From Anaerosomatales bacterium (GTDB lineage Bacteria; Actinomycetota; Coriobacteriia; Anaerosomatales; SLCP01), in assembly GCA_029210645.1 (NCBI GenBank), contig JARGFT010000001.1:1035-65034 (forward strand): 64,000 nt of DNA, in the 5' to 3' direction. Shown here piece by piece: positions 17,473 to 36,440 of the stretch. The notes under the pieces were generated by a model. That model ran no database searches. It saw only the letters and a program-made list of their open reading frames with translations, and was not told the origin of the DNA. The translations under genes were made by a program, and so were the position numbers. Position 1 is the stretch's first letter; the number at the start of each line of letters is the position of its first letter.

Positions 17473-18906
17473 ATGTCCGGACTCCTCGACACCATCTCCG
17501 CACACGACCCGGTTCTCGGGCGTCACCTTCTCAACGTCGCCCAGAACCTGCAGCTCGTCGCAGACCTCGGCTACGGTGACGTGGCGCTTGCGGTGCCGGG
17601 TGCCGACGGAGCACTCGCGGTCGCCGCCGATGCGCGTCCCGTGACGGCTGTCGCGGCGCTGGCCGGCTCGCGGGTGGGAGCGAACCTCTCGCCGGAGCGG
17701 GAGAGCGAGGCCTACGAGGCCGCCCGCCTCGGCCGTCTTGTCCAGGGCACCAGGCGCCGAATCACGCGCGGGATCTCCTACACCTCGGCTGCATATCCGG
17801 TCGGCCCCGCGGGTGATCCGGCTGCGGTGATCGTCCGCAACGTGGCGCTCCAGGTGCTCGATGCGCCCGGTGCGATGGAGACGCAGTTCATGCAGGCGGC
17901 CGAGGACCTGCTCAAGGTGTTGTGCGTCGCTCCGCTCACCACCGCCGGGGGAGACACCTTTTCCACCGTGCGCGTCGCCGGCGACGGCGTGCTGCGCCTC
18001 GACACCGATGGCCGGGTCGCATACGCGAGCCCCAACGCCGTCAATATCATGCGCCTGGCGGGTTTCGAGGGCGCAGTGCCCGGTACGGTCGGGACGCGTC
18101 TGCCCGGCGGCCCTGCCGCGCTCGCGCCCGTCATGCAGGGGCGCTCGGGTACTGCGGCGGGCACGGAAACCGAGGTCGGAGAGCGGGTGCTCGACTACCG
18201 TGCGATCCGTCTCGAGCACGGCGTGCTCGTCCTCGTCCAGGACCGCACCGAGGCGTACCGTCGCGAGCAGGAGATCAAGGTCAAGGAGGCGACGATCCGC
18301 GAGGTCCACCACCGGGTGAAGAACAACCTGCAGACCATCGCGAGCCTCCTGCGCATCCAAGCGCGTCGCGCCGAGACCGACGAGGCCAGGCGCGAGTTGG
18401 CAGAGGCCGTCGAGCGGGTCTCGTCGATGGCGGTGGTCCACGACATGCTGGCGTCTTCGACCGAGGAGCGCATCGACTTCACCGAGGCGGCGCGTACCGT
18501 CGTAGATCAGGTCCGGCGGGGGCTGGCCGGGGAGAGCAAAGCCGTCTCGGTGAGCGTCAACGGGTCGACGGGCCTGGTGCCCTCCTACGTCGCGACCTCG
18601 CTCGCGCTCATCGTCGCCGAACTCGTCCACAACGCCATCGAGCACGGATTCGCCGACCGTGACGGCGGGGAGGTGGAGGTAGCGATGCGGCGTCTCATCG
18701 GCGAGCTCGTGCTCACCGTGCGCGACGACGGTACCGGTCTTCCCCAAGGATTCGACCCGCACTCGGCCACCAACCTCGGCCTGGCGATCGTGCGTACGGT
18801 GGTCGAGGACAACCTTCACGGCACCATCGCGTTCAGCGGCGGACGCGGCACCACGGTCACTGTCCGGTTCCCGCTCGCAGACGATCCGACACCGGGGAAG
18901 GAGTGA
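17473..18906 (+). CDS. pdtaS: sensor histidine kinase, PdtaS-like (HisKA_2/HWE-type H-box)
   Basis: H-box HHRVKNNLQTIASLLRIQ with a C-terminal HATPase and N-terminal GAF/PAS-like region. It is paired with the ANTAR regulator downstream. Confidence 0.8.
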   Translation: MSGLLDTISAHDPVLGRHLLNVAQNLQLVADLGYGDVALAVPGADGALAVAADARPVTAVAALAGSRVGANLSPERESEAYEAARLGRLVQGTRRRITRGISYTSAAYPVGPAGDPAAVIVRNVALQVLDAPGAMETQFMQAAEDLLKVLCVAPLTTAGGDTFSTVRVAGDGVLRLDTDGRVAYASPNAVNIMRLAGFEGAVPGTVGTRLPGGPAALAPVMQGRSGTAAGTETEVGERVLDYRAIRLEHGVLVLVQDRTEAYRREQEIKVKEATIREVHHRVKNNLQTIASLLRIQARRAETDEARRELAEAVERVSSMAVVHDMLASSTEERIDFTEAARTVVDQVRRGLAGESKAVSVSVNGSTGLVPSYVATSLALIVAELVHNAIEHGFADRDGGEVEVAMRRLIGELVLTVRDDGTGLPQGFDPHSATNLGLAIVRTVVEDNLHGTIAFSGGRGTTVTVRFPLADDPTPGKE

Positions 18907-19484
18907 GGCCCGTGCGCGTGCTCATCGCCGAGGACGAGGCCCTCATCCGCATGGACCTTCGCGAGATGCTCGAGGAGGACGGCCACGAGGTCGTGGGAGA
19001 GGCGGGAGACGGCGAGTCCGCGGTCGAGATGGCCCGGGACCTCGCGCCCGACGTCGTGTTCATGGACATCGAGATGCCGGTGATGAACGGTCTGGATGCC
19101 GCGTGCATCCTCGGAGCCGAGCAGGTGGCTCCCGTGGTGATGGTCACCGCCTTTTCGCAGGCCAGCTACGTGGACCGGGCGTGCGACGCGGGGGCCATGG
19201 GCTACCTGGTCAAGCCGTTCTCGAAGGGCGATATCGTCCCCGCGATGCAGATCGCAACGTCGCGGTTCATCGAGTCCCGTCAGCTTGCCGAGGAGATCGA
19301 CGATCTCAAGGAGCGCCTCGCGACCCGCACGCTCGTCGACCGGGCCAAGGGCGCACTCATGGGGCGGGGCATGACCGAACCCGAGGCGTTCCGGCGTCTC
19401 CAGAAGATGGCGATGGACAAGCGGCTGACATTGAAGCAGGTCGCCGAGGCGGTTCTGCTCGCAGAGGAGGCCGCCGAGCGGTAA
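18903..19484 (+). CDS. pdtaR: response regulator with ANTAR RNA-binding output domain, PdtaR-like
   Basis: REC domain (VLIAEDE.., DVVFMDIEMP, GYLVKPF) plus ANTAR (LATRTLVDRAKGALM...EPEAFRRLQKMAMDKRLTLKQVAEAVL). GTGA overlap with the pdtaS stop. Confidence 0.85.
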   Translation: MRPVRVLIAEDEALIRMDLREMLEEDGHEVVGEAGDGESAVEMARDLAPDVVFMDIEMPVMNGLDAACILGAEQVAPVVMVTAFSQASYVDRACDAGAMGYLVKPFSKGDIVPAMQIATSRFIESRQLAEEIDDLKERLATRTLVDRAKGALMGRGMTEPEAFRRLQKMAMDKRLTLKQVAEAVLLAEEAAER

Positions 19485-19536
19485 AGTAATCATTTGGGCC
19501 GGAACCGGTCCGGAGACGCCGAAAGGGGGTGCGCCG

Positions 19537-20895
19537 ATGCACGTCGAGACGCCTACGATGGAGGAGCTTCGCGAACAAGTGCGCTTCCTCGTCGACGAGC
19601 ACGACTGGCTCGCCGTCCGCCGACTTCTCGCGGAGATGTCCGTCCCGGAGGTCGCCGACCTGCTCGAGGGCGTCGAGATGCCCGAGCGCCTGCTGGTCTT
19701 CCGCCTCCTGCCCCGTGACTTCTCCGACGACGTCTTCTCCTACCTTGACGGGCCCGAGCAGGACGTCATCCTCGGAGGGCTGACCGACCGTGAGACGCGG
19801 CGCCTCCTCGCCTCCATGGCGCCTGACGACCGTACCGAGCTCTTCGAAGAGCTCCCCGGAGAGATCACCCAGAAGCTGCTGAATCTGCTCGACGCAGGCG
19901 ATCTTGCCGAGGTCCGCCAACTGCTCGGATACCCCGAGGAGAGCGTCGGGCGGCTCGCGACCACCGACTACGTCGCCATCCGTCCACAGTGGACGGTCGC
20001 GCACGCGCTCGAACACATCCGCCAGCGGGGGCGCGACTCCGAGACCATCGACGTCGTGTACGTCACCGACCGAACGTGGCACCTCGAGGGCGTGTGCGAG
20101 CTGAGGCGGCTCATCCTCGCCGAGCCCGATCATCTGGTGAGCGACGTCATGGAACCGGTGCACACCCGGGTGACCGCGTTCGACGACCAGGAAGAGGCGG
20201 TCCGCGAGATGCAGCGTCACGACACCGTGGCGCTGCCGGTGGTGGACTCGGCGGGCGTGCTCATCGGCATCGTCACCGCGGACGATGTCTTCGACGTCCT
20301 CGAAGAAGAGGTCACCGAGGACATCCACCGCACGGCGTCCGTCCAGCCACTGCGCCAGAGCTACCGACGCCTGAGCGTGTTCGACCTGTACGGCAAGCGC
20401 ATCGGCTGGCTCGCGATCCTTCTCGTGGTGAACCTCGTTTCCTCTCAGGTCATCTCCGCCTACGAGGAAACGCTTATGGCAGCCATCGCGCTCGCATTCT
20501 TCATCCCGCTGCTGATCGCCACGGGCGGTAACACCGGCTCGCAGTCGGCGATGATGATGGTGCGCGCGCTGGTCACCGACGACGTCGGTCCCGGCCAGTG
20601 GGCGAGCACCTTCGTCAAGGAGCTCGGTGTGGGCCTCATGCTCGGCGTGACGCTGGCTGGCGGATCGTTCTTCCTCGGCCTGTTCAGAGGCGATTGGCGC
20701 ATCGGCGTGGTTGTGGGATCGTCCATGGCCGCGATCGTTGTGGTCTCCAACATCATCGGGATGTCGCTGCCGTTCCTTTTCACCAAGATCGGGCAGGACC
20801 CCACGGTGGCTTCCAGCCCGCTCATCACCTCGCTTGCCGACGTGACGGGGCTCCTCATCTACTTCGGGATCGCACGGGCCGTCCTGCAGATCTGA
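19537..20895 (+). CDS. mgtE: magnesium transporter MgtE
   Basis: N-domain, tandem CBS domains, and a C-terminal TM domain with PLLIATGGNTGSQS. Confidence 0.9.
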   Translation: MHVETPTMEELREQVRFLVDEHDWLAVRRLLAEMSVPEVADLLEGVEMPERLLVFRLLPRDFSDDVFSYLDGPEQDVILGGLTDRETRRLLASMAPDDRTELFEELPGEITQKLLNLLDAGDLAEVRQLLGYPEESVGRLATTDYVAIRPQWTVAHALEHIRQRGRDSETIDVVYVTDRTWHLEGVCELRRLILAEPDHLVSDVMEPVHTRVTAFDDQEEAVREMQRHDTVALPVVDSAGVLIGIVTADDVFDVLEEEVTEDIHRTASVQPLRQSYRRLSVFDLYGKRIGWLAILLVVNLVSSQVISAYEETLMAAIALAFFIPLLIATGGNTGSQSAMMMVRALVTDDVGPGQWASTFVKELGVGLMLGVTLAGGSFFLGLFRGDWRIGVVVGSSMAAIVVVSNIIGMSLPFLFTKIGQDPTVASSPLITSLADVTGLLIYFGIARAVLQI

Positions 20896-20977
20896 ACCCG
20901 GCCGGACGGGCGCTCCGCGCACAGAGGGGTAGGTACTCTCTGACAGCGAGAGCAGCGACGAGGGAAGGGACGGGAGC

Positions 20978-22540
20978 ATGCCCGCTACACCGAGTGTGCT
21001 GATCGATCCGGACCGATTCGACGCCGTCATCTTCGACATGGACGGCGTCATCACCGATACGGCGGGGCTCCATGCCGAGGCGTGGAAGCGCCTCTTCGAC
21101 GACTTCCTGCGCAAGCACGCCGAGGAGACCCGCGGCGAGTTCGTGCCCTTCGACATCGAGCACGACTACCTGCCGTACGTCGACGGGAAGGCGCGCCACG
21201 ACGGCGTGCGGTCCTTCCTTCAATCGCGCGGGATCGAGCTTCCCGAGGGAGAGGACGATGACCCGCCCGAGGCCACGACTGTCCACGGCCTGGGCACGCG
21301 CAAGAACGGGTACTTCCTCGAGGCGATGGCGGAGCATGGCGCCGAGGCGTTCCCCTCGGCGGTCGCGCTCGTGCGCACGTTGCGCGACGCGGGCGTGGCC
21401 ACCGCGATCATCTCGGCGTCGCGCAACGCGGCAAGCGTGCTCGCCTCAGCCGGGGTCGATAGGCTCTTCGACGTGCGGGTGGACGGCGACACGGCGGCAG
21501 AGCTCGGCCTGGCCGGCAAGCCGGACCCAGCCGTGTTCCTCGAGGCCGCTCGCCGGCTCGGCGCACGCCCGGAGCGTGCCGTGGTGGTCGAGGACGCCGA
21601 ATCGGGGGTGGAGGCCGGTCGCAGCGGCGGGTTCGGGCTCGTGATCGGGGTCGACCGGGCCGGCCGGCCGGAGCGTTTGCTGGACGGCGGGGCCGATCTC
21701 GTCGTCGACGACCTCGCGCAGGTCGAGGTCGTCACGCGAGCGCCGATGCACTCGCTGCCCGACGCGCTCGAGAGCTGGGACGCGATTCGAGATCGCTTTG
21801 ACCGACGCGAACCTGCGGTCTTCCTGGATTACGACGGGACGCTCACTCCGATCGTGGAACGCCCCGAGGACGCGCTGCTCACCCCCGAGATGCGTGAGAA
21901 GATACGACGGCTCGCGGAGCGCTGTCTGGTGGCCGTGGTCAGCGGGCGCGACGTCGGGTTCGTGGTCGAGCAGGTCGCGCTGGACTCGGTGCTCTACCTC
22001 GGCAGCCACGGGTTCGACGTCGTCGTTCCGGAAGGTCGGCAGCTGCACCAGGAGCGTCTCGGAGAGTTCGAGTCCTTCCTCGGCCCGCTTGATGCCGCGG
22101 AGGCCGAGATCGCCGGGCGCGTGGAGAAGGTGGCGGGAGCCCGTATCGAGCGCAAGAAGTACGCGATCGCGGTGCACTACCGGCAGGTCGCCGACGGAGA
22201 CGTCCCGGCCGTCGAGCGCGCTGTTGACGAGGTGCTGTCGCACCACCCCGAGCTTCGCAAGACCGGCGGCAAGAAGGTGTTCGAGCTGCGTCCCGACATC
22301 GATTGGGACAAGGGGCGTGCTCTCATGTGGGTGCTCGAGGCGCTCGGCATGGATGACGGCCGCCATGCTCCGGTCTACGTCGGCGACGACCTCACCGACG
22401 AGGACGCGTTTGCCGTCGTGCGGGGAGACGGACTAGCCGTGGTAGTGGGCTCCGATGAGCGCACGACCCTCGCCGAGTACCGCGTCCGGGACACCGAGGC
22501 GGCAGGAGAAGTGCTGGAGCGGCTGGCGCTGCTGGCGTAA
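20978..22540 (+). CDS. fusion protein: beta-phosphoglucomutase-like HAD domain plus trehalose-6-phosphate phosphatase domain
   Basis: The N-terminal half has the DAVIFDMDGVITDT HAD motif I and VVEDAESGVEAG. The C-terminal half has AVFLDYDGTLTPIV (OtsB motif I) and YVGDDLTDEDAF. Confidence 0.8.
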   Translation: MPATPSVLIDPDRFDAVIFDMDGVITDTAGLHAEAWKRLFDDFLRKHAEETRGEFVPFDIEHDYLPYVDGKARHDGVRSFLQSRGIELPEGEDDDPPEATTVHGLGTRKNGYFLEAMAEHGAEAFPSAVALVRTLRDAGVATAIISASRNAASVLASAGVDRLFDVRVDGDTAAELGLAGKPDPAVFLEAARRLGARPERAVVVEDAESGVEAGRSGGFGLVIGVDRAGRPERLLDGGADLVVDDLAQVEVVTRAPMHSLPDALESWDAIRDRFDRREPAVFLDYDGTLTPIVERPEDALLTPEMREKIRRLAERCLVAVVSGRDVGFVVEQVALDSVLYLGSHGFDVVVPEGRQLHQERLGEFESFLGPLDAAEAEIAGRVEKVAGARIERKKYAIAVHYRQVADGDVPAVERAVDEVLSHHPELRKTGGKKVFELRPDIDWDKGRALMWVLEALGMDDGRHAPVYVGDDLTDEDAFAVVRGDGLAVVVGSDERTTLAEYRVRDTEAAGEVLERLALLA

Positions 22541-22551
22541 GGGGAGTAGCG

Positions 22552-24951
22552 GTGAGCGTGTGGACCCTGACATACGAGGGATACGACCCCGAGCAGGAGC
22601 GATTGCGAGAAGCGCTCTGCACCGTCGGGAACGGCTACCTGGCTACGCGCGGAGCGGCACCGGAGTCGACAGCAGGCCCTCACCACTACCCGGGAACCTA
22701 CCTCGGCGGGTACTTCAACCGCCTGACTTCTGAGATCCACGGTCGCGAAGTGGCGAACGAATCCATGGTCAACATGCCCAACTGGCTGCCGCTGACGTTT
22801 CGCCCGTCCGGCGGTGCGTGGTTCGAACTGGACTCCGGGGTCTACGAGATCCTCGAGTACGTCCAGGAGTTCGACCTGAAGCGCGGAGTGCTTACGCGGC
22901 GCGTTCGCGTGCGCGATACCGACGGTCGCACTACGGCGGTCACGCAGCGCCGATTCGCTCACATGGGACACCGGCACCTCGCGGGGCTCGAGACGACGGT
23001 GCTCGCCGAGGACTGGTCGGGCACGCTTGAGTTCCGCACCGCGATCGACGGGACCGTCGCGAACACCGGTGTCGATCGGTATCTGGATCTCCCCAGCGTG
23101 CACCTGGAGCCTCGCGAGGAAGGGTTCGAGGGAGAGATCTCCTGGCTCGCGGTCGAGACGAACCAGTCGCATCTCCGGGTCGCCGAGGCGGTCCGCATCC
23201 GGGTGTTCGACGCCAACGACGAGCTCATCGAGCCCGGGCTCGAGTACACGACCTCACCCGGGCATGTCGAGTGCGCGTTCGCCGTCGAGGCGGCCGAGGG
23301 GGAGGCGATCACCGTCGAGAAGATCGCGGCGGTCTTCGGCTCGCGCGACAAGGCGATCTCCGAGCCGCTGCACGAGGCCCGGACCCACGTTTCCCGCGCA
23401 CGCTCCTTCGACGATCTCCTCGTCTATCACGGGCTGGTGTGGGGGCAGATGTGGGGCCGCTTCGAGACTGAGGTCGACCCGGGTGATGGCGACCGGGTGG
23501 GGATGGTGCTCAACCTGCACGTCCTGCACATGTTGCAGACCATCTCGCACAACTCGATCGACATGGACGTGGGCGTGCCGGCGCGCGGGCTGCACGGCGA
23601 GGCGTACCGCGGCCACATCTTCTGGGACGAGATCTTCGTCTTCCCGCTGATCAACTTCCGCCTGCCCTCGCTCACCCGTGCGCTTCTTGCGTACCGCTAC
23701 CGTCGCCTGAACGAGGCCCGCTTCCTCGCGTACCAGGAGGGGCATGCGGGTGCGCTCTATCCGTGGCAGAGCGGGTCGAACGGTGCCGAGGAAACGCAGA
23801 CGTACCACCTCAACCCGATGTCGGGCGAGTGGAAACCCGATAATTCGCACCTTCAACGTCACGTGAACATCGCGGTCGCCTACAACGTCTGGTCGTACTA
23901 CCTCGTGACCTCGGATGAGGAGTTTCTCGCCTACCAGGGCACCGAGATGCTCGTCGAGATCGCGCGTTTCTGGGCGAGCCTGGCGACATACAACAAGGTC
24001 ACCGACCGCTACGACATCCTCGGCGTGATGGGCCCGGACGAGTACCACGACGGGTATCCGGACGCCGACGAGCCCGGCCTGAATAACAACGCGTACACCA
24101 ACGTGATGGCCGCATGGACGCTCTGTCGTGCCCAGGACGCTCTCGATGCGCTGCGTCCTTACCGCCAGGAGGAGTTGTGGCAGCGTCTCGCGCTCAGCCG
24201 CGAGGAGATCGAGGCGTGGGACGAGATCAGCCGCAAGCTCACCGTGCCCTTCCACGACGGGGTCATCAGCCAGTTCGAGGGCTACGAGGACCTCGAGGAG
24301 TTCGACTGGGACGGCTATCGCGAGAAGTACGGCGACATCCAGAGGCTCGATCGCATCCTTCATGCCGAGGGGGATACGCCGAACCGCTACAAGGTGTCCA
24401 AGCAGGCCGACGTGCTCATGCTCTTCTACCTGCTCTCGGACGAGCGGCTGGCCGAGCTGTTCGAACGGCTCGGCTACGGGTGCGACCAGCAGGTCATTCA
24501 TTCGACTATCGACTACTATCTGGCCCGGACGTCGCACGGCTCGACGCTCAGCGGTATCGTGCACTCGTGGGTGATCGCCCGCCGTGACCGCGGGCACTCC
24601 TGGGAGCTGTTCGTAGAGGCGCTCGAGAGCGACATCTCCGACGTGCAGGGCGGCACGACCGCCGAGGGCATCCACCTTGGGGCCATGGCCGGCACCGTCG
24701 ACCTCCTGCAGCGTGCGTACACGGGGCTCAATCCCCGAGAAGGGGTGCTCTGGTTCGATCCCGCGCTGCCCGACCCGGTACGCGAGCTCTCGATCACCAT
24801 CCGCTACCACGGCATGTGGCTCGGCGTACAGTTCACGAAGTCGAAGCTGGTGGTCACCTCCGACGCGTCGGACTCCGGCGTGTGCCAGATCGGCGTGCGC
24901 GACACGCTCCACGACTACGAGCCGGGTCAGACGCTCGAGGTGTGGTTGTAG
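22552..24951 (+). CDS. glycoside hydrolase family 65 phosphorylase (trehalose/kojibiose/maltose phosphorylase-like)
   Basis: 799 aa. LATRG near the N-terminus, the RGLHGEAYRGHIFWDE catalytic-region motif and the GIHLGAMAG segment are typical of GH65. Confidence 0.85.
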   Translation: MSVWTLTYEGYDPEQERLREALCTVGNGYLATRGAAPESTAGPHHYPGTYLGGYFNRLTSEIHGREVANESMVNMPNWLPLTFRPSGGAWFELDSGVYEILEYVQEFDLKRGVLTRRVRVRDTDGRTTAVTQRRFAHMGHRHLAGLETTVLAEDWSGTLEFRTAIDGTVANTGVDRYLDLPSVHLEPREEGFEGEISWLAVETNQSHLRVAEAVRIRVFDANDELIEPGLEYTTSPGHVECAFAVEAAEGEAITVEKIAAVFGSRDKAISEPLHEARTHVSRARSFDDLLVYHGLVWGQMWGRFETEVDPGDGDRVGMVLNLHVLHMLQTISHNSIDMDVGVPARGLHGEAYRGHIFWDEIFVFPLINFRLPSLTRALLAYRYRRLNEARFLAYQEGHAGALYPWQSGSNGAEETQTYHLNPMSGEWKPDNSHLQRHVNIAVAYNVWSYYLVTSDEEFLAYQGTEMLVEIARFWASLATYNKVTDRYDILGVMGPDEYHDGYPDADEPGLNNNAYTNVMAAWTLCRAQDALDALRPYRQEELWQRLALSREEIEAWDEISRKLTVPFHDGVISQFEGYEDLEEFDWDGYREKYGDIQRLDRILHAEGDTPNRYKVSKQADVLMLFYLLSDERLAELFERLGYGCDQQVIHSTIDYYLARTSHGSTLSGIVHSWVIARRDRGHSWELFVEALESDISDVQGGTTAEGIHLGAMAGTVDLLQRAYTGLNPREGVLWFDPALPDPVRELSITIRYHGMWLGVQFTKSKLVVTSDASDSGVCQIGVRDTLHDYEPGQTLEVWL

Positions 24952-25736
24952 CGCCTGCGCGGGTACCGCTGCGAGCTCGTGGCACCGCTCCCGTCGAGTG
25001 CGATGATGGAGACCTCGAGGTCTGTCGGCGTGATCGTCAGCACGTTGTACGAGGGCGGGATCTCGCCGCGGGTACGCCACGTGCTCGCGGTCCCGCTCGT
25101 GACGATGAACATCCGGTTTACCTGCCACACGTAGGGTACGTGCCGGTGTCCTGCGAGGACGAGGTCGACCGAGTAACGGTCGAGGATCGCGAGCACGTCA
25201 CCGGCGTCGAGTACGATGTTGCGCTCCCGGCCCGTGTCGGGGATGCCAACAAGGTGATGATGGATCACCACGATAGTGAAGGCCGGTGGTCCCTCGAGCT
25301 GTTCGGCGAGCCAGTCGTACCGGTGACGGCCGAGCTCGCCGTCGTTGAGGTCTGGCTTGCTCGAGTCGATCGATACGATGCGAACGCGCTCGCAGCCCAC
25401 GGCGGGGTCGTGAGCCTCGAACACGAGCTCCCTGCAGTCCCAGCGCGTTCCGAACATCTCGGCAAAGTGCAGGTAGCCCACGTTCCTGCTGTCGTGGTTC
25501 CCGGGGATGACGATCACCTCGGGGCATACGAGGCGGTCGATCTCGGCCTTCGCGATCTCGAACTGGTCGCGATAGCCGTTGACGGTGAGGTCGCCGGGGA
25601 TGACCACGAGATCGGGACAGAGGGCGTTCACATCGTCAATGACCTTCTCGAGCATCTCCGGGTCGTAGCGACCGTCGCCGCAGTGCAGGTCCGAGAGCTG
25701 CGCGATGACGAACCGGTCTGCTGCATCCGGGCACAT
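24927..25736 (-). CDS. metallophosphoesterase (calcineurin-like)
   Basis: SDLHCGD, PGDLT and PGNHD motifs. ATG 25736. The 3' end overlaps the convergent GH65 gene by 25 nt. Confidence 0.75.
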   Translation of the reverse strand: MCPDAADRFVIAQLSDLHCGDGRYDPEMLEKVIDDVNALCPDLVVIPGDLTVNGYRDQFEIAKAEIDRLVCPEVIVIPGNHDSRNVGYLHFAEMFGTRWDCRELVFEAHDPAVGCERVRIVSIDSSKPDLNDGELGRHRYDWLAEQLEGPPAFTIVVIHHHLVGIPDTGRERNIVLDAGDVLAILDRYSVDLVLAGHRHVPYVWQVNRMFIVTSGTASTWRTRGEIPPSYNVLTITPTDLEVSIIALDGSGATSSQRYPRRRYNHTSSV

Positions 25737-25841
25737 GGCGCTCCTTCCGCCGGGGCCTCCTAGGGATAGATTCCCCCCGGCACGGCGGCGTCTCACGGGC
25801 GAGGCTCTCCCGGCGCGTGCCACGTGCTATACTCGCGTGAC

Positions 25842-25927
25842 ACGGCACAAAGACGTGCCGTCCATAGCGCAACGAGCAATGAAGCTCGCCTGGCCCATTC
25901 GGGGCCCCGGCGGGCTTTTTCGTTTTT
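25842..25927 (+). promoter_or_regulatory. candidate ANTAR-target leader: two hexaloop hairpins overlapping an intrinsic terminator
   Basis: P1 spans 25842-25861 (ACGGCAC-AAAGAC-GTGCCGT). P2 spans 25873-25888 (CGAGC-AATGAA-GCTCG). The terminator stem spans 25884-25915 and is followed by TTTTTCGTTTTT (25916-25927). Both loops have A at position 1 and G at position 4. An extended -10 TGCTATACT lies at 25825-25833. Confidence 0.5.
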
Positions 25928-25954
25928 CGGGCAGCGTGACAGGAGGATGGCGGC

Positions 25955-27292
25955 ATGAAAGAGTTCGCGGCGTTCTGGGGGTGCACGATCCCCGCACGCT
26001 TCCCGTTCATCGAGAAGGCGACGCGACTGGTGTGGGAAGACCTCGGTGCACGCGTGCACGAACTCGAGGGCCACACCTGCTGCCCCGAGGGCGTGCTCGT
26101 CAAAGCGAACGACGAGCAGGCGTTCTACACCGCCGCGGCGCGCAACCTCGCTCTCGTGGAGCGGGCCGAGCTCGACGTCGTCACCCCGTGCAACGGCTGC
26201 TACTCGACGTTCAAGGAGGCTCAGAGTCACCTGCGCACCAGGTGGCGTGAGCGCGACGCCGTCAACGAGCGGCTTGCGCGCGAAGACCTGCACTACTCCG
26301 GCTCGAACAAGGTCGTCCACTTCGCCGAGTGGCTCTCCGACGAGATGGGTGCCGGGCTCGTGGCCTCGCGGGCGGTCAGGCCGCTGTGGGGGATGCGTAT
26401 CGCGGTCCACTACGGGTGCCACCTCCTGCGCCCGCAGCCGGCGGTACGGTGGGACGACCCGTTGCACCCCAGTAAGGTAGAGGAGATCGTCACGGCTCTG
26501 GGCGCGCGGGTGGTCGACTACCCGACCAAGATGCAGTGTTGCGGTGGCGCCCTCGACCGGGTAGGGGAGCGTGAGTCCTCGCTCGCCTTCGCGCGGCGCA
26601 AGCTCGTCGACGTGCAGCGCGAAGAGGTCGACGCGCTCGTCGTGGTCTGCCCGAGCTGTTTCCAGCAGTTCGATCTGAACCAGGCGGCCCTGCAGCGTGC
26701 CACGGAGGACATCAACGTTCCGGTCTTCTACCTCGCAGAGCTCATCGCACTGACATACGGGCACGAGCCCGCCGAGATCGGCCTGGATATGCACCGCGTG
26801 TCTGTCCAGCCGTTCCTCGAGCGGTGGGGGTCTCGTACCGCCGACAAGGTGCGCCTGGCCTCGCACTTCGACGTGGCGATGCTCGGGAAGTGCTATTCGT
26901 GCCAGGCGTGCAAGGACGATTGTCCGGTGTGCAAGGTCGACCCGAGCTTCCAGCCGACCGAGATCATCGGCGATCTGGTGCGCGGCTACCTCGACGACGT
27001 AGTTGCCGACAGCCAGCTCTGGAAGTGCCTGGAGTGCTACACCTGCCAGGAGCTGTGCCACTCCGACATCGGCATGGCCGAGACGTTCAGGCAGCTCAAG
27101 GAGCTTGCGATGGCATCGGGCAGCGGGCCCGAGTCGGTCTCGGCCGCCTACCAGACCTTCCTGGAGACGGGAGTCCTCGGCAAACCGAGGGAGTCCGCGC
27201 GCAAGAAGCTCGGACTCTCACCCCTGCCTGCGACCGGTGGAGACGCCGTGTCCCACCTGATCGACTGCGCGACCGAGATCAAGGGAGAGTAG
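25955..27292 (+). CDS. heterodisulfide-reductase-like protein, HdrB (2x CCG domain) fused to an HdrC-like 2x[4Fe-4S] domain
   Basis: CCG-domain cysteines (GHTCCPEG, PCNGC, MQCCGGAL, VVCPSCF) are followed by CYSCQACKDDCPVCK and CLECYTCQELCHSD. SD AGGAGG at 25941-25946. Confidence 0.75.
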   Translation: MKEFAAFWGCTIPARFPFIEKATRLVWEDLGARVHELEGHTCCPEGVLVKANDEQAFYTAAARNLALVERAELDVVTPCNGCYSTFKEAQSHLRTRWRERDAVNERLAREDLHYSGSNKVVHFAEWLSDEMGAGLVASRAVRPLWGMRIAVHYGCHLLRPQPAVRWDDPLHPSKVEEIVTALGARVVDYPTKMQCCGGALDRVGERESSLAFARRKLVDVQREEVDALVVVCPSCFQQFDLNQAALQRATEDINVPVFYLAELIALTYGHEPAEIGLDMHRVSVQPFLERWGSRTADKVRLASHFDVAMLGKCYSCQACKDDCPVCKVDPSFQPTEIIGDLVRGYLDDVVADSQLWKCLECYTCQELCHSDIGMAETFRQLKELAMASGSGPESVSAAYQTFLETGVLGKPRESARKKLGLSPLPATGGDAVSHLIDCATEIKGE

Positions 27293-27294
27293 CG

Positions 27295-28569
27295 ATGCGA
27301 TACGAACCGCTTCTGGAGCGCATGCCAACCACGCGCATCCCGTCCTTCACCGATCGTGAGGGCGTATCTCGCGGGGAGCGCCCCCGCTACGCCGAGGAAG
27401 CCCCGTTCAAGATCCACGGCGGGTGCGGGCTGATGGGCATCTGTGACGAGTCCGGATCGCTCATGAGCGGGGAGGTGCCGATCCGCGCGATGGCGGTGCA
27501 ACGCGACCGTGGCAACGGTCTGGGCGGAGGCTTCGCCGGTTACGGCATCTACCCCGAGTTCCCGGACCATTTCTGCTTCCACATGATGTACCACGACCTG
27601 AGGGCCAAGGAGGACGCCGAGGCGCTCTTCGACCGGTACTTCCAGATCGATCTTGCCGAGCCCATGCCTACGAGGCCCGTTAAGGGCATCGGCGACGCTC
27701 CGCTGCTCTGGCGCTACTTCCTCAACCCCGATCCTCACAAGCTCGAGGCCGCCGAGATGACGCCCGAGGACTTCGTCGTGCATTCGGTCATGCTCATAAA
27801 CTCCACCGTCGACGGGGCGTTCGTCGCCTCGAGCGGCAAGAACATGGGCGCGTTCAAGGGCGTGGGCTTCCCCGAGGAGATCGGTCACTACTACCTGCTC
27901 GAAGAGTACGAGGGCCACACGTGGGTCGGACACAACCGTTTCCCGACCAATACGCCTGGCTGGTGGGGCGGCGCGCATCCGTTCACGCTGCTTGACTGGT
28001 CGATCGTGCACAACGGCGAGATCTCGAGCTACGGCATCAACAGTCGCTATCTCGAGCAGTTCGGCTACAAGTGCACGCTCGGCACCGACACGGAGGTTGC
28101 CGCCTACCTGTTCGACCTGATGTTGCGCCGTCACCAGCTGCCGATCGAACTCGCGTGCAAGGCGCTCGCAAGCCCGCTGTGGTCCGAGATCGACCGCATG
28201 CCCGCAGAGGAGCAGGCCGTCATGCGCTCGCTGCGCGCGGTCTACGGGCCGGGCATGCTCAACGGGCCGTTCGCCATCGTGCTCGGATTCAACGGCGGGA
28301 TGGTTGCGCTCAACGACCGCATCAAGCTGCGGCCGCTCGTCGCCGCCCGGCAGGGATCGATCGTCATGGTCGCATCCGAGGAGAGCGCGATCCGTGAGGT
28401 GCTCGATGCGCCCGACCGTGTGTGGGCGCCGAAGGCCGGCGAGCCTGTGATCGCCACTGTCTCGGGAAACGGATCGCCCGTCCACTCAGACCTGCATCTG
28501 TCCGCCGATGAAGTCTCGTGTGCCGTTACCGGCATGCTCGAGACCTGCGACGCCGTCGAGGTGAGCTAG
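27295..28569 (+). CDS. class II glutamine amidotransferase domain protein (glutamate synthase domain 1, archaeal-type split GltB)
   Basis: GGCGLMGI nucleophile context, QRDRGNGLGGG and HNRFPTN.. motifs. ATG 27295 is in frame in track ORF 26824..28569. Confidence 0.8.
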   Translation: MRYEPLLERMPTTRIPSFTDREGVSRGERPRYAEEAPFKIHGGCGLMGICDESGSLMSGEVPIRAMAVQRDRGNGLGGGFAGYGIYPEFPDHFCFHMMYHDLRAKEDAEALFDRYFQIDLAEPMPTRPVKGIGDAPLLWRYFLNPDPHKLEAAEMTPEDFVVHSVMLINSTVDGAFVASSGKNMGAFKGVGFPEEIGHYYLLEEYEGHTWVGHNRFPTNTPGWWGGAHPFTLLDWSIVHNGEISSYGINSRYLEQFGYKCTLGTDTEVAAYLFDLMLRRHQLPIELACKALASPLWSEIDRMPAEEQAVMRSLRAVYGPGMLNGPFAIVLGFNGGMVALNDRIKLRPLVAARQGSIVMVASEESAIREVLDAPDRVWAPKAGEPVIATVSGNGSPVHSDLHLSADEVSCAVTGMLETCDAVEVS

Positions 28570-28571
28570 AG

Positions 28572-30083
28572 ATGCCGATATCGCTCATACAGCCCGAGTT
28601 CAAGGTCCACATCGACTACGACAAGTGCCACAAGTGTGGCCGGTGCGTCCAGCAGTGCGGGTGGAGCGTGTACTCGTTCAACGAGCGGCCGATCCCGGAC
28701 GACTCCAAGTGCCGCGCGTGCCACCGCTGCGTGACGTACTGTCCCGCCCACTGCATCACCATCAGGAAGAACGATCTCGCGCTGCGGGACAACGCCAACT
28801 GGTCCCCTGCGCTTCGCCAGGGCGTGTGGCGCCAGGCCGAGACCGGCGGCGTCATGCTGACCGGCATGGGCAACGACAAGCCGTACCTGTCGATCTTCGA
28901 TCACCTGCTGCTCGACGCGTGCCAGGTCACCAACCCGTCCATCGACCCGCTGCGCGAGCCTATGGAGCTGCGGACCTACCTCGGCCGCAAGCCCTCGGCT
29001 GTCGAGGTGACCTCCGACGGCAACGGCGGCTTTCGGCTTGCCGAGGGCGCGGGAGTGCAGAAGAACATCAAGCTGGACGTCCCCATCATCTTCTCGCCGA
29101 TGAGTTACGGCTCGGTCTCGCTGCCCGTCCACCGCTCGCTCGCGATGGCGGCCGAGCGGCTGGGCATCCTTATGAACACCGGAGAGGGCGGTCTGCATGC
29201 CGACCTCTATCCGTACGCCGATAACGTCATCGTTCAGGTCGCCTCGGGCCGTTTCGGTGTCGACCCCGAGTACCTCAACCGGGGTGCGGCCGTAGAGATC
29301 AAGGTCGGGCAGGGCGCCAAGCCGGGTATCGGCGGACACCTGCCGGGGGAGAAGATCAACCGCGAGGTCTCCGAGACGCGCATGATCCCGCAGGGTTCGG
29401 ACGCGATCAGCCCCGCGCCGCACCACGACATCTACTCGATCGAGGACCTGCGACAGCTGATCTACTCGATCAAGGAGGCGACCGACTACAAGCCGGTGGG
29501 CGTGAAGATCGCGGCGGTCCACAACGTGGCCGCCATCGCGAGCGGCATCGTTCGCGCCGGGGCCGACTACGTCCACCTCGACGGCTTCCGAGGGGGCACC
29601 GGAGCGGCGCCGCAGATCATCCGCGACCACATCGGCATACCCATCGAGCTGGCGATCGCAGCGGTCGACCAGCGCCTGCGCGACGAGGGTATCCGCAACC
29701 AGGCGTCGATCATCGCAGCCGGCTCGATCCGCTCCTCGGCCGATCTCGCCAAGGCGATCGCTCTCGGGGCCGACGTGGTGGCCATCGGCTCGGCTGCGCT
29801 CATGGCGCTCGGTTGCCACATGTGCCAGGGCTGCCACACCGGATCGTGCTCGTGGGGGCTTACGACGCAGAAGCCCGAACTCACGCGGCGCGTCGATCCC
29901 GAGTGGGGCGCGGAGCGGCTGACGAACCTGGTCAGCGCGTGGAGCCACGAGCTGCAGGAGATCCTCGGAGCGCTCGGGGTGAATGCGGTCGAGTCACTGC
30001 GTGGCAGCCGGGAGCGGTTGCGTTCGATCGGCCTGGACGAGCAGACCGGCAGAATCCTGGGCGTCAAGCCCGCGGGAGTATAG
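28572..30083 (+). CDS. glutamate synthase FMN/Fe-S domain protein with N-terminal 2x[4Fe-4S] ferredoxin domain (GltB domain 2)
   Basis: CHKCGRCVQQC and CRACHRCVTYCP clusters, then SPMSYGSVS, KVGQGAKPGIGGHLPG, DGFRGGTGAAP and the C-terminal Cys cluster CHMCQGCHTGSC. Confidence 0.85.
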   Translation: MPISLIQPEFKVHIDYDKCHKCGRCVQQCGWSVYSFNERPIPDDSKCRACHRCVTYCPAHCITIRKNDLALRDNANWSPALRQGVWRQAETGGVMLTGMGNDKPYLSIFDHLLLDACQVTNPSIDPLREPMELRTYLGRKPSAVEVTSDGNGGFRLAEGAGVQKNIKLDVPIIFSPMSYGSVSLPVHRSLAMAAERLGILMNTGEGGLHADLYPYADNVIVQVASGRFGVDPEYLNRGAAVEIKVGQGAKPGIGGHLPGEKINREVSETRMIPQGSDAISPAPHHDIYSIEDLRQLIYSIKEATDYKPVGVKIAAVHNVAAIASGIVRAGADYVHLDGFRGGTGAAPQIIRDHIGIPIELAIAAVDQRLRDEGIRNQASIIAAGSIRSSADLAKAIALGADVVAIGSAALMALGCHMCQGCHTGSCSWGLTTQKPELTRRVDPEWGAERLTNLVSAWSHELQEILGALGVNAVESLRGSRERLRSIGLDEQTGRILGVKPAGV

Positions 30084-30094
30084 GGAGGCATCGC

Positions 30095-30940
30095 ATGACA
30101 CCGGTGACAGAGCTGACCAAGCCGGCTGCGGCCGAGGTCGCAAAGCCGATAGAGGGTTACCTCCAGGCTGTGCCCGAGGCGAGGGTCGACGGAGGTGTTG
30201 CGACGATCGATGCCCGCGGCATCTACTACAAGCACCTCAACGAGGTCGTTCGGAGATGTCTCGCCGACGGTGCGAAGAAGGTCGTGCTTGAGAGCGTCAA
30301 CGGCCAGCGCTACATCGGCACGGGACTCAAGGGCGCGGGTACGCGGATCGAGGTCCACGGAACTGCCGGTCAGGACATGGCGATGTTCATGGACGGTCCG
30401 ACGGTCGAGGTGTTCGGTAGCGCCCAGGACGGTGTAGGCAACACGATGAACGCCGGTCGCGTGATCGTGCATGGGGACGCGGGTGACGTACTCGGATACG
30501 GCATGCGCGGAGGCCAGGTCTTCATCAAGGGCGACGTCGGCTACCGGGTCGGGATCCACATGAAGGCGTACGAGACCCGTCATCCCGTCATGGTATGCGG
30601 CGGCAAAGCGAGAGACTTCTTCGGCGAGTACATGGCCGGGGGAGTGCTCGTGCTGCTCGGGATGGACAGCCGGATCGGGGGCCCGCTCGTCGGCGGATAC
30701 ATCGGCACCGGCATGCACGGAGGGGTCATCTACCTGCGGGGCGAGGTCGAGTCCTGGCAGTGCGGCAAGGAGGTCGGGACGTTTCCTGCGGATGAGAAGG
30801 ACCTTGCGACCCTGCGTCCGGTGCTCGAGGAGTACTGCGAGGCGTTCGGGATAGATGTCGACGAGGTGCTCTCGATGCCCTTCACCAAGCTCGTGCCGAT
30901 CAGTCACCGGCCCTACGGGAAGTTGTACACGTACGTATAG
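30095..30940 (+). CDS. GXGXG-motif domain protein (glutamate synthase domain 3 / FwdC-like beta-helix)
   Basis: Repeated G-x-G turns (HGTAGQDMAMFMDG..VFGSAQDGVGNTMNAGRVIVHGDAGDVLGYGMRGGQVFIKGDVGYRVG). Confidence 0.8.
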   Translation: MTPVTELTKPAAAEVAKPIEGYLQAVPEARVDGGVATIDARGIYYKHLNEVVRRCLADGAKKVVLESVNGQRYIGTGLKGAGTRIEVHGTAGQDMAMFMDGPTVEVFGSAQDGVGNTMNAGRVIVHGDAGDVLGYGMRGGQVFIKGDVGYRVGIHMKAYETRHPVMVCGGKARDFFGEYMAGGVLVLLGMDSRIGGPLVGGYIGTGMHGGVIYLRGEVESWQCGKEVGTFPADEKDLATLRPVLEEYCEAFGIDVDEVLSMPFTKLVPISHRPYGKLYTYV

Positions 30941-31098
30941 CGCAGGGCCTCGCACATGGCTGAGCGCGTCGCCGGAACGTCGGCGGAACAGCCCCGTTCG
31001 CGGGCATGCGGTACGCTTGTGCGGACTGGATATCGTGCGTGTAGGGGATTATCCAGACTGCAGAAGATGGGTTAGGTGGGACGACAGGGGGGATCGGG

Positions 31099-31362
31099 AT
31101 GGCGGTGCTCGGGCTTCCGGGCGGGATGGAATGGCTGATCATCGCATGTATGTGTCTGCCGTTCCTTGTGCTCGCGGTTGTGGCCGTCGTGCTCGTTCAG
31201 CAACGGGGTGCCGGGGCTGCCGGACAGGCTCCCACGCCGCCGGTCCCGCCAGCAGGCTGGTTTGCGGACCCGACTGGACGACACGAGCTCAGGTACTGGA
31301 ACGGTCTTTCTTGGACGGCGTCAGTCAGCGATGCCGGCACACAGTCCGACGACCCAATGTAG
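31099..31362 (+). CDS. DUF2510-domain membrane protein
   Basis: One TM span (WLIIACMCLPFLVLAVVAVVLV), a Pro-rich linker and the GWFADPTGRHELRYWNGLSWT motif. The start is ATG 31099 or 31129. Confidence 0.6.
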   Translation: MAVLGLPGGMEWLIIACMCLPFLVLAVVAVVLVQQRGAGAAGQAPTPPVPPAGWFADPTGRHELRYWNGLSWTASVSDAGTQSDDPM

Positions 31363-31521
31363 GCGAGGTCGGTCGCCCACCTAACAAGCGCATCGTTAGC
31401 AGCAGGCGCGCAGAAGGTAGACTGGACCTGCAAGCAGGCGGCGCGCAGCTCATGCGCAACACGTTAGCCACAGCAAGAATCCGGTTTGGCTCTGTTTGGA
31501 CGAGGGGCGTATCATCGGGGC

Positions 31522-31737
31522 ATGAGCACACCGGCCATCGACATCGACAATCTCGCACCGGAGGAGCGCCTCAAGCTCATCGGCGACCTGTGGGAGAGTC
31601 TGCGCGCCGAACCCGAGGCGGTGCGGCTCACCCCTTCCCAGAGAGCTGAGCTCGACCGTCGCCTTGATGCCCTGGATCGCGGGACCGCCGACATCATGAC
31701 TTGGGACGAGGCCAAGCGCCGGCTGCGCGGCTGGTAG
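31522..31737 (+). CDS. putative addiction-module antitoxin (TIGR02574-like)
   Basis: LAPEERLKLIGDLWESL....LTPSQRAELDRRL motif, 71 aa, directly upstream of a ParE/RelE-like gene. Confidence 0.65.
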   Translation: MSTPAIDIDNLAPEERLKLIGDLWESLRAEPEAVRLTPSQRAELDRRLDALDRGTADIMTWDEAKRRLRGW

Positions 31738-31739
31738 CT

Positions 31740-32042
31740 GTGTCTGGACAGCTGTGGGTCCTCGCAGACGCCGTGGCTGAGAGCGAAGCCGCTCGCGCGT
31801 GGTACGAGGTCCAGCGCCCCGGGCTTGGTGGCGAGCTCCTCGATGCGATTGACAGTGCTGTCGAATCGCTACTCGCAGTCCCCGAAGTCTGTCCCGTGGA
31901 CTATCGTGACGCGCGACGTTACCTTCTCGAGCGCTTCCCCTACTGTCTGTACTATCGTGTCGAGTCTGACGGCGTGGTCGTCGTCGCACTTCTTCATGCT
32001 GCTCGTGATCCAGCTCATAAGCGCCGTCGGCTGCATTCCTGA
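31740..32042 (+). CDS. type II toxin, RelE/ParE family
   Basis: A..E...A..WYE....GLG..L, RRYLLERFPYCLYYRV and VVVVALLHAARDP motifs. GTG 31740 lies 2 nt after the antitoxin stop. Confidence 0.7.
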   Translation: MSGQLWVLADAVAESEAARAWYEVQRPGLGGELLDAIDSAVESLLAVPEVCPVDYRDARRYLLERFPYCLYYRVESDGVVVVALLHAARDPAHKRRRLHS

Positions 32043-32085
32043 GTTCAAGTTTGAATCGCAACACACGGCCCTTCTGAGCGACTTC

Positions 32086-32211
32086 CTACGATCTTGCATA
32101 GCACTCCTCCGGTGTTCGGAACCCCAGCCGCTTCCTGGTCCGGGTGTTCAGCTTGTGCGCGATGGCGTCCAGGTCCGCCTGTGTGACGTGCGCCATGCTC
32201 GTGCGCTTCGG
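32086..32211 (-). mobile_element. IS30-family transposase C-terminal remnant (last ~40 codons only)
   Basis: ..PKRTSMAHVTQADLDAIAHKLNTRTRKRLGFRTPEECYARS* matches the conserved IS30 tail (YFPKxT...TQxELDxVAxxLNxRPRKxLGFxTPxE). No DDE core is present upstream. Confidence 0.6.
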
Positions 32212-32476
32212 CATCGCCCGGGATGAACTGATCGTCCGCTTCGGGATCGTCCGGCTGCGCATCCCGCTGGACACGATTCAGGAGGTGGTGCTTACCCACA
32301 ACCCGCTGTCCGCTCCAGCGCTGTCGCTAGACCGGCTCGCAGTCCGCACCGGCATGAGCCCGCTTTCAGAAACGATGATCTCCCCGGCTGATCGGGAGGC
32401 CTTCCTCTCCACCCTGGCGATGCACTCGAGGTTGCGACGGGATGGCGATCGGTTGGTGCGTTTCGGGCGGCCTTGA
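32195..32476 (+). CDS. bacterial PH-domain-like protein, probably N-terminally truncated at the IS30 scar
   Basis: ..DELIVRFGIVRLRIPLDTIQEV....SLDRLAVRTG....ISPADREAFLSTL pattern. Its first codons are antisense to the transposase remnant. Confidence 0.4.
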   Translation: MLVRFGIARDELIVRFGIVRLRIPLDTIQEVVLTHNPLSAPALSLDRLAVRTGMSPLSETMISPADREAFLSTLAMHSRLRRDGDRLVRFGRP

Positions 32477-32520
32477 GCGCACGCCCATGAGTATCCGACT
32501 GACGACCGTGATGCGGGAAC

Positions 32521-32967
32521 TCAGTCGTCGATGACCGCAAGACCCTGACGTTCCAGCTCGGCCAGGTGGTCCCGCATCGACTGGAGCACATCCGGGGGAT
32601 GGCCCTCCCATTCCCTGACCTCGCCGGTTACTCGCAGCGGGTCCCGGGTCCTGTAGGACCTGGTGGGGTTGCCGGGGAAGCGCTTGTTGGTCAGGTTGAG
32701 GTCGTCTTCAAAGGGACCGGTGGGTTCGACGATGTAGATCCGTCCCGCTCCCTCGCCCCGGGCCAGCTCTGCTCCCCAGACAGCCGCATCCAGGGTGCCC
32801 GTGAAGTAGATGTTGTTCGATGCCCGACCTTCCTCGAAGTTCGAGCCGTAGCCGGGAATCAGCAGTTCCCCCGGTGTGACGCTGGCCTTGGTCCCGTGGT
32901 AGAAGGGGCCCTTGATGTGGTCGTGGTGCTCGAACGTCACGGGGATATGGGCGCTGTCGTCGTCCAC
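32521..32967 (-). CDS. arr: NAD+--rifampin ADP-ribosyltransferase
   Basis: 148 aa, collinear with Arr as I recall it: GPFYHGTKA.., NIYFTGTLDAAVWGAELA, IYIVEPTGPFEDDLNLTNKRFPGNPTRSYRTRDPLRV, EWEGHP. Confidence 0.9.
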   Translation of the reverse strand: MDDDSAHIPVTFEHHDHIKGPFYHGTKASVTPGELLIPGYGSNFEEGRASNNIYFTGTLDAAVWGAELARGEGAGRIYIVEPTGPFEDDLNLTNKRFPGNPTRSYRTRDPLRVTGEVREWEGHPPDVLQSMRDHLAELERQGLAVIDD

Positions 32968-33011
32968 GACCGGTCTCCTTGCTCGTTCCCAACGGAGGTT
33001 CTGGCGTACAG

Positions 33012-33073: not shown

Positions 33074-33115
33074 GTTGGTGACGCACCCCGAATCGCAGGC
33101 AGAGGAGCACTACTG

Positions 33116-34603: not shown

Positions 34604-34611
34604 AGGCGCTC

Positions 34612-36418: not shown

Positions 36419-36440
36419 GTGACCTCCTGCAATAGCACCC

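Follow-up and report, generated by a model that had tools for sequence, protein, structure and literature searches.

The 64 kb window analysed here, by which we mean the whole stretch of Anaerosomatales bacterium DNA at hand (66.6% GC), contains on its forward strand a leader (25825–25954) that precedes an operon encoding an HdrB/HdrC-like iron–sulfur protein and the three parts of a split glutamate synthase (GOGAT). We interpret this leader as a transcription-attenuation switch of the ANTAR class, in which a terminator would form by default and a phosphorylated PdtaR-like response regulator, encoded upstream, would stabilize an alternative hairpin (P2) and thereby give read-through. Based on the sequence and on comparative analysis, we place the probability of this interpretation at about 0.75. 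The pairing of the leader with this regulator and with its putative kinase, PdtaS, is supported by synteny among orthologous loci.

RNA targets of ANTAR proteins have been defined as two hairpins of at least 3 bp separated by a short linker that varies in sequence but little in length, with six-nucleotide loops that have A at position 1 and G at position 4 and with an ANTAR protein encoded in the same genome, often close by, and the best candidates additionally have a terminator which overlaps P2 (Ramesh et al., 2012; PMC3369931). The leader has hairpins of 7 and 5 bp, hexaloops with A1 and G4 in each (AAAGAC and AAUGAA), a short linker and a P2 that overlaps the terminator, and an ANTAR gene is present in the genome (Table 1). 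A preliminary description of this DNA, prepared from the sequence alone, had assigned the −10 element, P1, the 11 nt linker, P2 and the terminator, and direct reading of positions 25500–26300 reproduced each of these coordinates and both loop signatures exactly to the base. Its assignment of the leader to the ANTAR-target architecture is also upheld, as every sequence-level feature described by Ramesh et al. (2012) is present and is conserved across the orthologues.

The terminator is a GC-rich stem-loop followed directly by a U-tract, as expected of an intrinsic terminator. Its outer helix of 7 bp includes one G·U pair and is followed by a 1×2 internal loop, a GGCCC/GGGCC inner helix and an AUUCG loop. 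The stem is as originally described, with the amendment that its foot gains up to three further pairs, between 25881–25883 and 25916–25918, in both the minimum free energy (MFE) fold and the RNAalifold consensus, so that the terminator also uses up part of the P2 loop. P2 and the terminator consequently have positions 25881–25888 in common (25884–25888 without the foot extension). The view that the two structures are mutually exclusive is strengthened by the finding that a shared position covaries with both of its partners. T-runs had been described as almost absent elsewhere in the window, and this is the case: only five runs of at least five T were found in the 64 kb, all on the forward strand, and the sole 12 nt stretch with at least ten T on either strand begins at 25916. 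A terminator scan of 17000–32000 returned the leader site as its single match. Two other assignments were rejected. A leader peptide beginning at the ATG at 25880 was discarded because this ATG falls within the P2 loop and is lost where the loop is AACGAC, and the terminator does not belong to a neighbouring gene, as the adjacent metallophosphoesterase gene is divergent, with its start at 25737.

For the folding check suggested in the preliminary description, the MFE fold of 25838–25930 consists of P1 and the terminator (−43.7 kcal/mol, z = −4.6 compared with shuffled sequences). The combination of P1 and the terminator has an energy of −35.6 kcal/mol, compared with −19.3 kcal/mol for P1 and P2, and when P2 is forced the terminator is reduced to an inner stub far from the U-tract. 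As the combination containing the terminator is far more stable than that containing P2, the default state would be termination.

We also estimated how often such a motif arises by chance. Dual A..G.. hexaloops with stems of at least 7 and 5 bp occur once in the window, compared with 0.19 times per dinucleotide shuffle, and once compared with 0.09 times when a downstream TTTT is included. When the stems are relaxed to 4 bp there are three matches in the window and 6.4 per shuffle; being commoner in shuffled sequence than in the window, this looser criterion is useless by itself. Its two further matches are at 30763–30806, inside the GXGXG gene, and at 42266–42316 in the glnA–glnR region, where the 'P1' of the match is not conserved. 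The search for additional dual hexaloops that had been recommended thus yielded none with stems of at least 7 and 5 bp beyond the leader within the 64 kb window, while the 4 bp form proved not to be rare. The chance level of the motif in a single sequence is modest, the shuffle statistics take no account of phylogeny, and the real support comes from conservation.

Conservation was assessed in 80 orthologous loci with ±10 kb flanks, from which 78 leaders were aligned; this leader type is conserved in about 115 related sequences. The motif GAGC-N6-GCTC is found in 78/80 loci, 70–150 nt ahead of the start codon (219 nt in one case). A covariance model built from P1 and P2 (51 positions) gave one strong match per locus in 78 loci, with scores of 35–65 bits, and there is one copy of the leader per orthologous locus within ±10 kb. 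Applied to the window with filters off, the model detected just 25840–25889 (54 bits, E = 5e-12), with the runner-up at 12.7 bits, and no further copy ahead of pdtaS, gdh or glnA. The conservation of P1 and P2 among orthologous leaders that the preliminary description had proposed to examine is therefore extensive, with the element present in 79/80 loci and degenerate in one of these 79 (L049), in which the match to the model is weak and P1 is lost. In the remaining locus, L005, the contig ends too near the gene for the leader to be judged. In L049 (9737–9844) P2 directly follows the −10 box in a leader of 219 nt and a pdtaR-like gene lies 3 kb upstream; this locus may represent a naturally deregulated or permanently terminating variant.

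Within the alignment both loops are 6 nt long in 78/78 leaders with zero indels. Position 4 is G in 77/78 P1 loops and 78/78 P2 loops, and position 1 is A in 64/78 and 74/78, respectively. The linker is not conserved in sequence but measures 9–15 nt in 72/78 leaders (mode 11). P1 is paired in 91% of cells, with compensatory changes in six of its seven pairs. A TAnnnT box ends 4–9 nt (mode 7) ahead of P1 in 78/78 leaders and is preceded by TGn in 72/78; this fixed spacing indicates that the transcript would start essentially at P1. The outer helix of the terminator is 99.8% paired, with G25888–C25911 present as GC in 52 leaders and AU in 25, and every terminator tail (78/78) has at least seven T in 12 nt. 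RNAalifold recovers P1 and the terminator independently and shows covariation of A25883 with U25916, that is, of P2 loop position 6 with the base after GGGC (CG 66, AU 6). Sliding the partners by 1–3 columns lowers the pairing to 22–46%.

The evidence for P2 is of a different kind. Its core, GAGC/GCUC, is invariant, and covariation is unable to prove pairing in a helix that never varies; the outer pair is CG in 44 leaders, UA in 12, UG in five and unpaired in 17. The GAGC arm lies 5′ of the terminator, outside its stem, and yet does not change. U25886 forms a G·U wobble in the terminator (77/78) and a Watson–Crick pair with the invariant A25875 in P2, as would be expected if both structures were under selection. 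Where G25888 is replaced by A, position C25873 is U in 12/25 leaders compared with 5/53 otherwise (Fisher p = 3e-4, uncorrected for phylogeny).

These data bear on the alternative that there is no switch at all, P1 being a 5′ stabilizing hairpin, the terminator leaky or decorative and the P2 pairing coincidental. The near absence of covariation in P2 and a chance level of about 0.1–0.2 per window for a single sequence would both be compatible with this. It is nevertheless very hard to reconcile with the retention, in 79 loci, of a strong terminator downstream of a conserved promoter and ahead of the start codon, with the near-invariance of G4 in both loops, with the conserved GAGC outside the terminator and with the constrained length of the linker, and we regard it as highly improbable.

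The candidate regulator is a PdtaR-like protein with REC and ANTAR domains. The start of its gene overlaps the stop of that encoding a predicted PdtaS-like kinase (18903/18906). Its best match among solved structures is 1s8n, the M. tuberculosis PdtaR Rv1626 (E = 4e-63, residues 3–185), followed by EutV (6wsh), and the phospho-acceptor Asp has its counterpart in 1s8n, as does the KP motif. When compared with EutV, the equivalents of Arg142 and Met172 are retained, with Lys147 replaced by Arg and Lys143 by Thr; Met172 of EutV has been reported to be essential for RNA binding (PMC8934654). A homologous REC-ANTAR open reading frame (ORF) is found in 57 loci including the window; in every case it shares the strand of the leader and lies upstream of it. 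Of the loci for which the complete 10 kb upstream is available, only four have no ANTAR gene. In 53/57 loci the ORF next upstream of the ANTAR gene is PdtaS-like; three of the four exceptions are cut by a contig end, and the fourth (L077) has overlapping PdtaS-like and ANTAR reading frames. The gene overlap and this conserved adjacency suggest phosphotransfer from PdtaS to PdtaR. In 14 loci the REC-ANTAR gene ends 160–400 nt ahead of the hdr-like ATG, so that the leader fills the spacer between pdtaR and hdr. The naming of PdtaS/PdtaR as the regulator, which began as a guess from one genome, thus gains support from synteny in 57 loci.

Several observations weigh against our interpretation. Position 1 of the P1 loop is G in 14/78 leaders, the outer P2 pair is a C·A mismatch in 11 of the 25 leaders in which G25888 is replaced by A, and pairing of the P2 core is backed by one covarying pair together with a GAGC that is conserved although it lies 5′ of the terminator. 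In the window pdtaR lies 6.4 kb from the leader, with four unrelated genes inserted between them, in the order MgtE, HAD/trehalose phosphatase, GH65 enzyme and the divergent metallophosphoesterase. For PdtaR of mycobacteria, the mode of action described involves translation and RNA decoys rather than terminators (PMC8164766, PMC8131098). Finally, the host is an uncultured organism known as a metagenome-assembled genome (MAG), and our survey of its ANTAR genes covers 64 kb, so that other ANTAR proteins are possible. The leader could accordingly be a genuine ANTAR antiterminator that responds to some other ANTAR protein whose gene lies beyond the window, with PdtaR acting elsewhere. The RNA sequence alone does not name the protein, as the P2 consensus is common to targets of other ANTAR regulators, and the four loci with complete upstream DNA mentioned above have the leader but no nearby ANTAR gene. 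We consider this alternative unlikely, given that pdtaS–pdtaR precedes the leader on the same strand in 57 loci, directly adjoining it in 14 of them, and that an ANTAR-domain search found no second ANTAR ORF in the window or in the 10 kb flanks of the orthologous loci.

The consensus of P2 and terminator extends beyond these orthologues. A metagenome scan for GAGCAAYGRCGCTC-N12-40-GGGCKTTTT returned 120 loci. The downstream gene is hdrBC-like in 38 of these, which represent the orthologous context, and encodes an nrtA-like nitrate-transporter binding protein in 22, of which 18 have an ANTAR ORF 226–375 nt upstream in the NasT arrangement. A classical large gltB follows in 13 loci, a cob(I)alamin adenosyltransferase gene of Enterococcus faecalis that is not part of the eut locus in another 13, a pdtaS-like gene in three, a REC-ANTAR gene in two (with glnA next in L083), and glnA and a GXGXG gene in one each. 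The downstream gene has no match to reference proteins in 16 loci, and in 11 the contig is too short to tell. As judged from sequence, the GAGCAAYGRCGCUC-plus-terminator consensus is common to leaders across phyla that adjoin ANTAR genes and lie ahead of nitrogen genes.

Some of these loci merit separate description. The E. faecalis leader (L081, L102, L130 and ten others) consists of AGUAC/AAUGGU/GUACU, 9 nt, GAGC/AACGGC/GCUC and a terminator, and precedes a stand-alone adenosyltransferase gene. Assignment of this leader to the eut locus was rejected as the neighbouring genes are unrelated. It may be the ef0120 leader, which has been shown to depend on EutVW (Ramesh et al., 2012; PMC3369931). 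In a second high-GC lineage (L083, L086, L127, L089, L107, L118, L098 and L140; GC 0.64–0.73) P2 is GGAGC/GCUCC, and leaders are found before pdtaS, before REC-ANTAR and then glnA, before a gltB of 1186 or more residues and before a GOGAT operon whose genes are arranged in another order. The leader ahead of pdtaS in this lineage raises the possibility of autoregulation. In L142 an hdrBC-like gene is preceded by two leader-like elements in tandem (2152–2205 and 2498–2543; 45 and 28 bits), with about 300 nt between them. The gltB leaders from human gut (L082, L085, L088, L117 and others; GC about 0.43) have a σ70-like promoter, the same P2 and a terminator; these low-GC leaders of the L082 type are without a recognizable A..G.. 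hexaloop P1.

The preliminary description had also proposed a scan with an Rfam covariance model for ANTAR targets. Rfam 15 gave no leader match in the window at the gathering threshold or in the leader at E ≤ 10. The same library gave no match on ten canonical-type loci, including NasT-linked nrtA leaders and the E. faecalis leader. Since it misses these positive controls too, the absence of a hit refutes nothing, and the Rfam library seems to be without a usable ANTAR-target model. The Rfam search is informative on whether the attenuator could operate without an ANTAR protein, either as a small-molecule riboswitch or as the target of another RNA-binding protein that recognizes GAGCAAYGRC. 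No aptamer in Rfam matched the leader beyond noise at E ≤ 10, and the conserved structure includes no bulge, internal loop or junction in which a ligand pocket might form, conservation being limited to two simple hairpins with their hexaloops and stems. The invariant P2 core could reflect recognition of a linear sequence, and the low-GC gltB leaders show that P2 can occur without an obvious P1. However, the motif is accompanied by neighbouring ANTAR genes in three contexts that are unrelated to one another (pdtaR, NasT-like and REC-ANTAR before glnA), and we think it very unlikely that the leader functions independently of such a protein.

Comparison with known systems is consistent with an ANTAR switch. 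The EutV/EutW leaders of E. faecalis (eutP, eutG, eutS, eutA and ef0120) likewise contain two A1/G4 hexaloop hairpins joined by a short constrained linker, with a P2 that overlaps an intrinsic terminator, and they too are controlled by a response regulator of the REC-ANTAR type that works with a histidine kinase. In the E. faecalis leader of the L081 type the P2 core, GAGCAACGGCGCUC, is identical. The two systems differ in that EutV/EutW serves ethanolamine utilization genes rather than glutamate synthase genes, in the kinase, which is EutW there and a PdtaS-type GAF/PAS kinase here, and in the host, which here is a high-GC actinobacterium. No EutX-type decoy RNA was found in a covariance-model scan of the window. 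NasR/nasF of Klebsiella and NasT/NasS have in common with the proposed switch the control of a nitrogen-assimilation operon by ANTAR antitermination. NasR has a NIT sensor domain and NasT is restrained by NasS; unlike the system described here, neither uses a PdtaS-like kinase. The nrtA-like leaders also have longer linkers, of about 27–45 nt.

Leaders before glutamate synthase genes are not without precedent. ANTAR leaders have been predicted ahead of such genes in Desulfotomaculum reducens (Ramesh et al., 2012; PMC3369931, Fig. 9A). Table S2 of the same work lists terminator-overlapping matches before glutamine synthetase (GS)/GOGAT-like genes in Carboxydothermus, Desulfitobacterium and Desulforudis, the last of these downstream of a gene for an ANTAR regulator. 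These Firmicutes leaders have the same dual hairpin and overlapping terminator and often follow closely on a REC-ANTAR gene. They come from another phylum, however, their regulators were not recognized as orthologues of PdtaR partnered by a PdtaS, and the predictions were not accompanied by a large alignment of orthologues. Of the mycobacterial proteins PdtaS/PdtaR (Rv3220c/Rv1626), Rv1626 is the closest solved relative of the regulator, and the GAF domain of PdtaS is shared by the kinase found here. The mycobacterial pdtaS and pdtaR genes are unlinked, unlike the pair in the window. A pdtaS knock-out of M. smegmatis has an amino-acid starvation phenotype and lower expression of nitrogen-assimilation genes (bioRxiv 10.1101/615575), which is compatible with a conserved link. 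A survey of actinobacteria reported few ANTAR RNAs upstream of terminators and has no glutamate synthase, heterodisulfide or Coriobacteriia entries (PMC8164766). We found no PdtaS/PdtaR–GOGAT link in the literature on PdtaS/PdtaR, and no GOGAT leader has been reported in mycobacteria. The preliminary description had stated that, as far as was known, no direct PdtaR–GOGAT link was described. This agrees with our search, with the qualification that a link between ANTAR proteins and GS/GOGAT genes was already predicted in Firmicutes in 2012; the pairing of PdtaS/PdtaR with this target is new as far as the literature search reached.

The switch that we propose would operate as follows. Transcription would start near 25840, about 7 nt past the extended −10 element, and P1 would form first. 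In the default state the terminator would outcompete the weak P2, and the polymerase would stop at the U-tract before reaching the operon. Phosphorylation of the PdtaR-like regulator by the PdtaS-like kinase would produce a PdtaR dimer, which could bind the P1 hexaloop, the recruitment hairpin of the EutV model, and then the P2 hexaloop, with G4 of each loop as the key contact. A closed P2 would sequester positions 25881–25888, the foot of the terminator, and if it were held until the polymerase had passed the U-tract, read-through into the hdrBC-like gene and the three glutamate synthase genes would follow. The order of binding events is carried over from EutV, for which P1 has been described as the recruitment hexaloop with P2 bound subsequently and with G4 flipped out as the sole base-specific contact (PMC3369931, PMC8934654). 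The constrained length of the linker fits the spacing requirement reported for EutV.

Table 1. Leader elements and genes assigned in the 64 kb window (dG in kcal/mol; domain assignments with E values where available).
Feature	Position	Strand	Description
Extended −10 promoter element	25825–25833	+	TGCTATACT; sequence and conservation; predicted transcription start near 25840
P1 hairpin	25842–25861	+	ACGGCAC/AAAGAC/GTGCCGT; 7 bp, hexaloop AAAGAC; dG −11.2
Linker	25862–25872	+	11 nt; sequence without conservation
P2 antiterminator hairpin	25873–25888	+	CGAGC/AAUGAA/GCUCG; 5 bp; dG −6.4
Intrinsic terminator	Stem 25884–25915, extended 25881–25918; U-tract 25916–25927	+	dG −22.8
T-rich tail	25916–25927	+	TTTTTCGTTTTT; direct reading
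Ribosome-binding site	25941–25946	+	AGGAGG; 8 nt ahead of ATG at 25955
HdrB/HdrC-like iron–sulfur protein, first operon gene	25955–27292	+	Two CCG domains (3.6e-31), 4Fe-4S dicluster Fer4_8 (Pfam)
Glutamine amidotransferase part of split glutamate synthase	27295–28569	+	GATase_2/6/7 (Pfam); ATG 2 nt past preceding stop
FMN/glutamate synthase core part	28572–30083	+	Glu_synthase 5.9e-135 (Pfam); ATG 2 nt past preceding stop
GXGXG (GltB C-terminal) part, last operon gene	30095–30940	+	GXGXG 4.9e-32 (Pfam); ATG 11 nt past preceding stop
PdtaS-like cytoplasmic histidine kinase (predicted)	17473–18906	+	GAF_PdtaS 1.4e-15, HisKA_2 6e-23, HATPase_c 1e-15 (Pfam)
PdtaR-like REC+ANTAR response regulator	18903–19484	+	Response_reg 3.5e-28, ANTAR 7.6e-20 (Pfam)
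Glutamate dehydrogenase	36578–37939	−	Pfam
Glutamine synthetase (glnA)	40829–42259	+	Pfam
GlnR-like regulator	42372–43043	+	Pfam
Hairpin overlapping GC-rich terminator-like stem (tentative)	42299–42339	+	CUUGGC/AACGGC/GCCGGG; stem 42305–42339, weak U-tract

The first protein of the operon has more than 1200 homologues, the top matches being from Coriobacteriia/Anaerosomatales MAGs. Among the 38 loci that show both genes, glnA lies within about 800 nt after the GXGXG gene and is followed by glnR in 26, and in some relatives glnA begins only about 25–110 nt after the last glutamate synthase gene; loci in which glnA follows include L015, L018, L023, L027, L042, L043 and L071. This adjacency points to an ancestral cluster pdtaS–pdtaR–leader–GOGAT–glnA–glnR. 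In the window 9.9 kb (30941–40828) are inserted before glnA and contain toxin–antitoxin-like ORFs, YchF, glutamate dehydrogenase and a PPDK-like gene. The sole Rfam match in the window is a tRNA gene with a long variable arm on the reverse strand (17261–17344, 55.9 bits), just upstream of pdtaS.

A second hexaloop element is located between glnA and glnR. The sequence CGGCAAYGGCGCCGGGCG is conserved in 26–27 of 29 orthologous glnA–glnR spacers and is able to form a hairpin of 4–6 bp with an AAYGGC hexaloop, of which the loop and 3′ arm are also the 5′ arm of a covarying GC-rich stem. No conserved P1 partner was found within 110 nt of this hairpin in the orthologous spacers, and the element therefore falls outside the dual-hairpin definition. 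Walshe et al. (2022) have argued that one hexaloop suffices as the minimal unit for ANTAR binding (PMC8934654), and the hairpin may be a second ANTAR/PdtaR site that governs read-through into glnR. Further downstream a conserved TAnnAT box (TACAAT, TAGAAT or TATCAT) ends one base ahead of the ATG/GTG of the GlnR-like gene (42360–42380 in the window), and in the window a second ATG of this gene is found 6 nt further on, at 42378. The GlnR-like mRNA may be leaderless.

PdtaS/PdtaR is a conserved actinobacterial system that has been studied mainly in M. tuberculosis, and its direct physiological targets are still debated. The cluster pdtaS–pdtaR–[leader]–hdrBC/GOGAT–glnA–glnR is intact in many relatives of the organism studied here. 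It is conceivable, although we hold the idea only tentatively and consider it doubtful, that PdtaS/PdtaR was originally the antitermination switch of this nitrogen supercluster, that PdtaR also controls read-through into the GlnR-like gene via the site after glnA, and that the mycobacterial starvation phenotype is a vestige of this function. As an aid to annotation, the 51-position model finds the element cleanly, at 35–67 bits against a background of about 13 bits, where Rfam finds nothing. The conservation of the leader runs counter to the actinobacterial survey (PMC8164766), in that the classical antitermination mode appears to be well conserved in Coriobacteriia. Throughout this lineage an orthologue of PdtaS/PdtaR is found beside a textbook terminator-type ANTAR site, which would guard the glutamate synthase operon of a GOGAT–GS–GlnR cluster. 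The leader would provide PdtaS/PdtaR with a concrete RNA target and suggests that nitrogen assimilation is a core output of this system.

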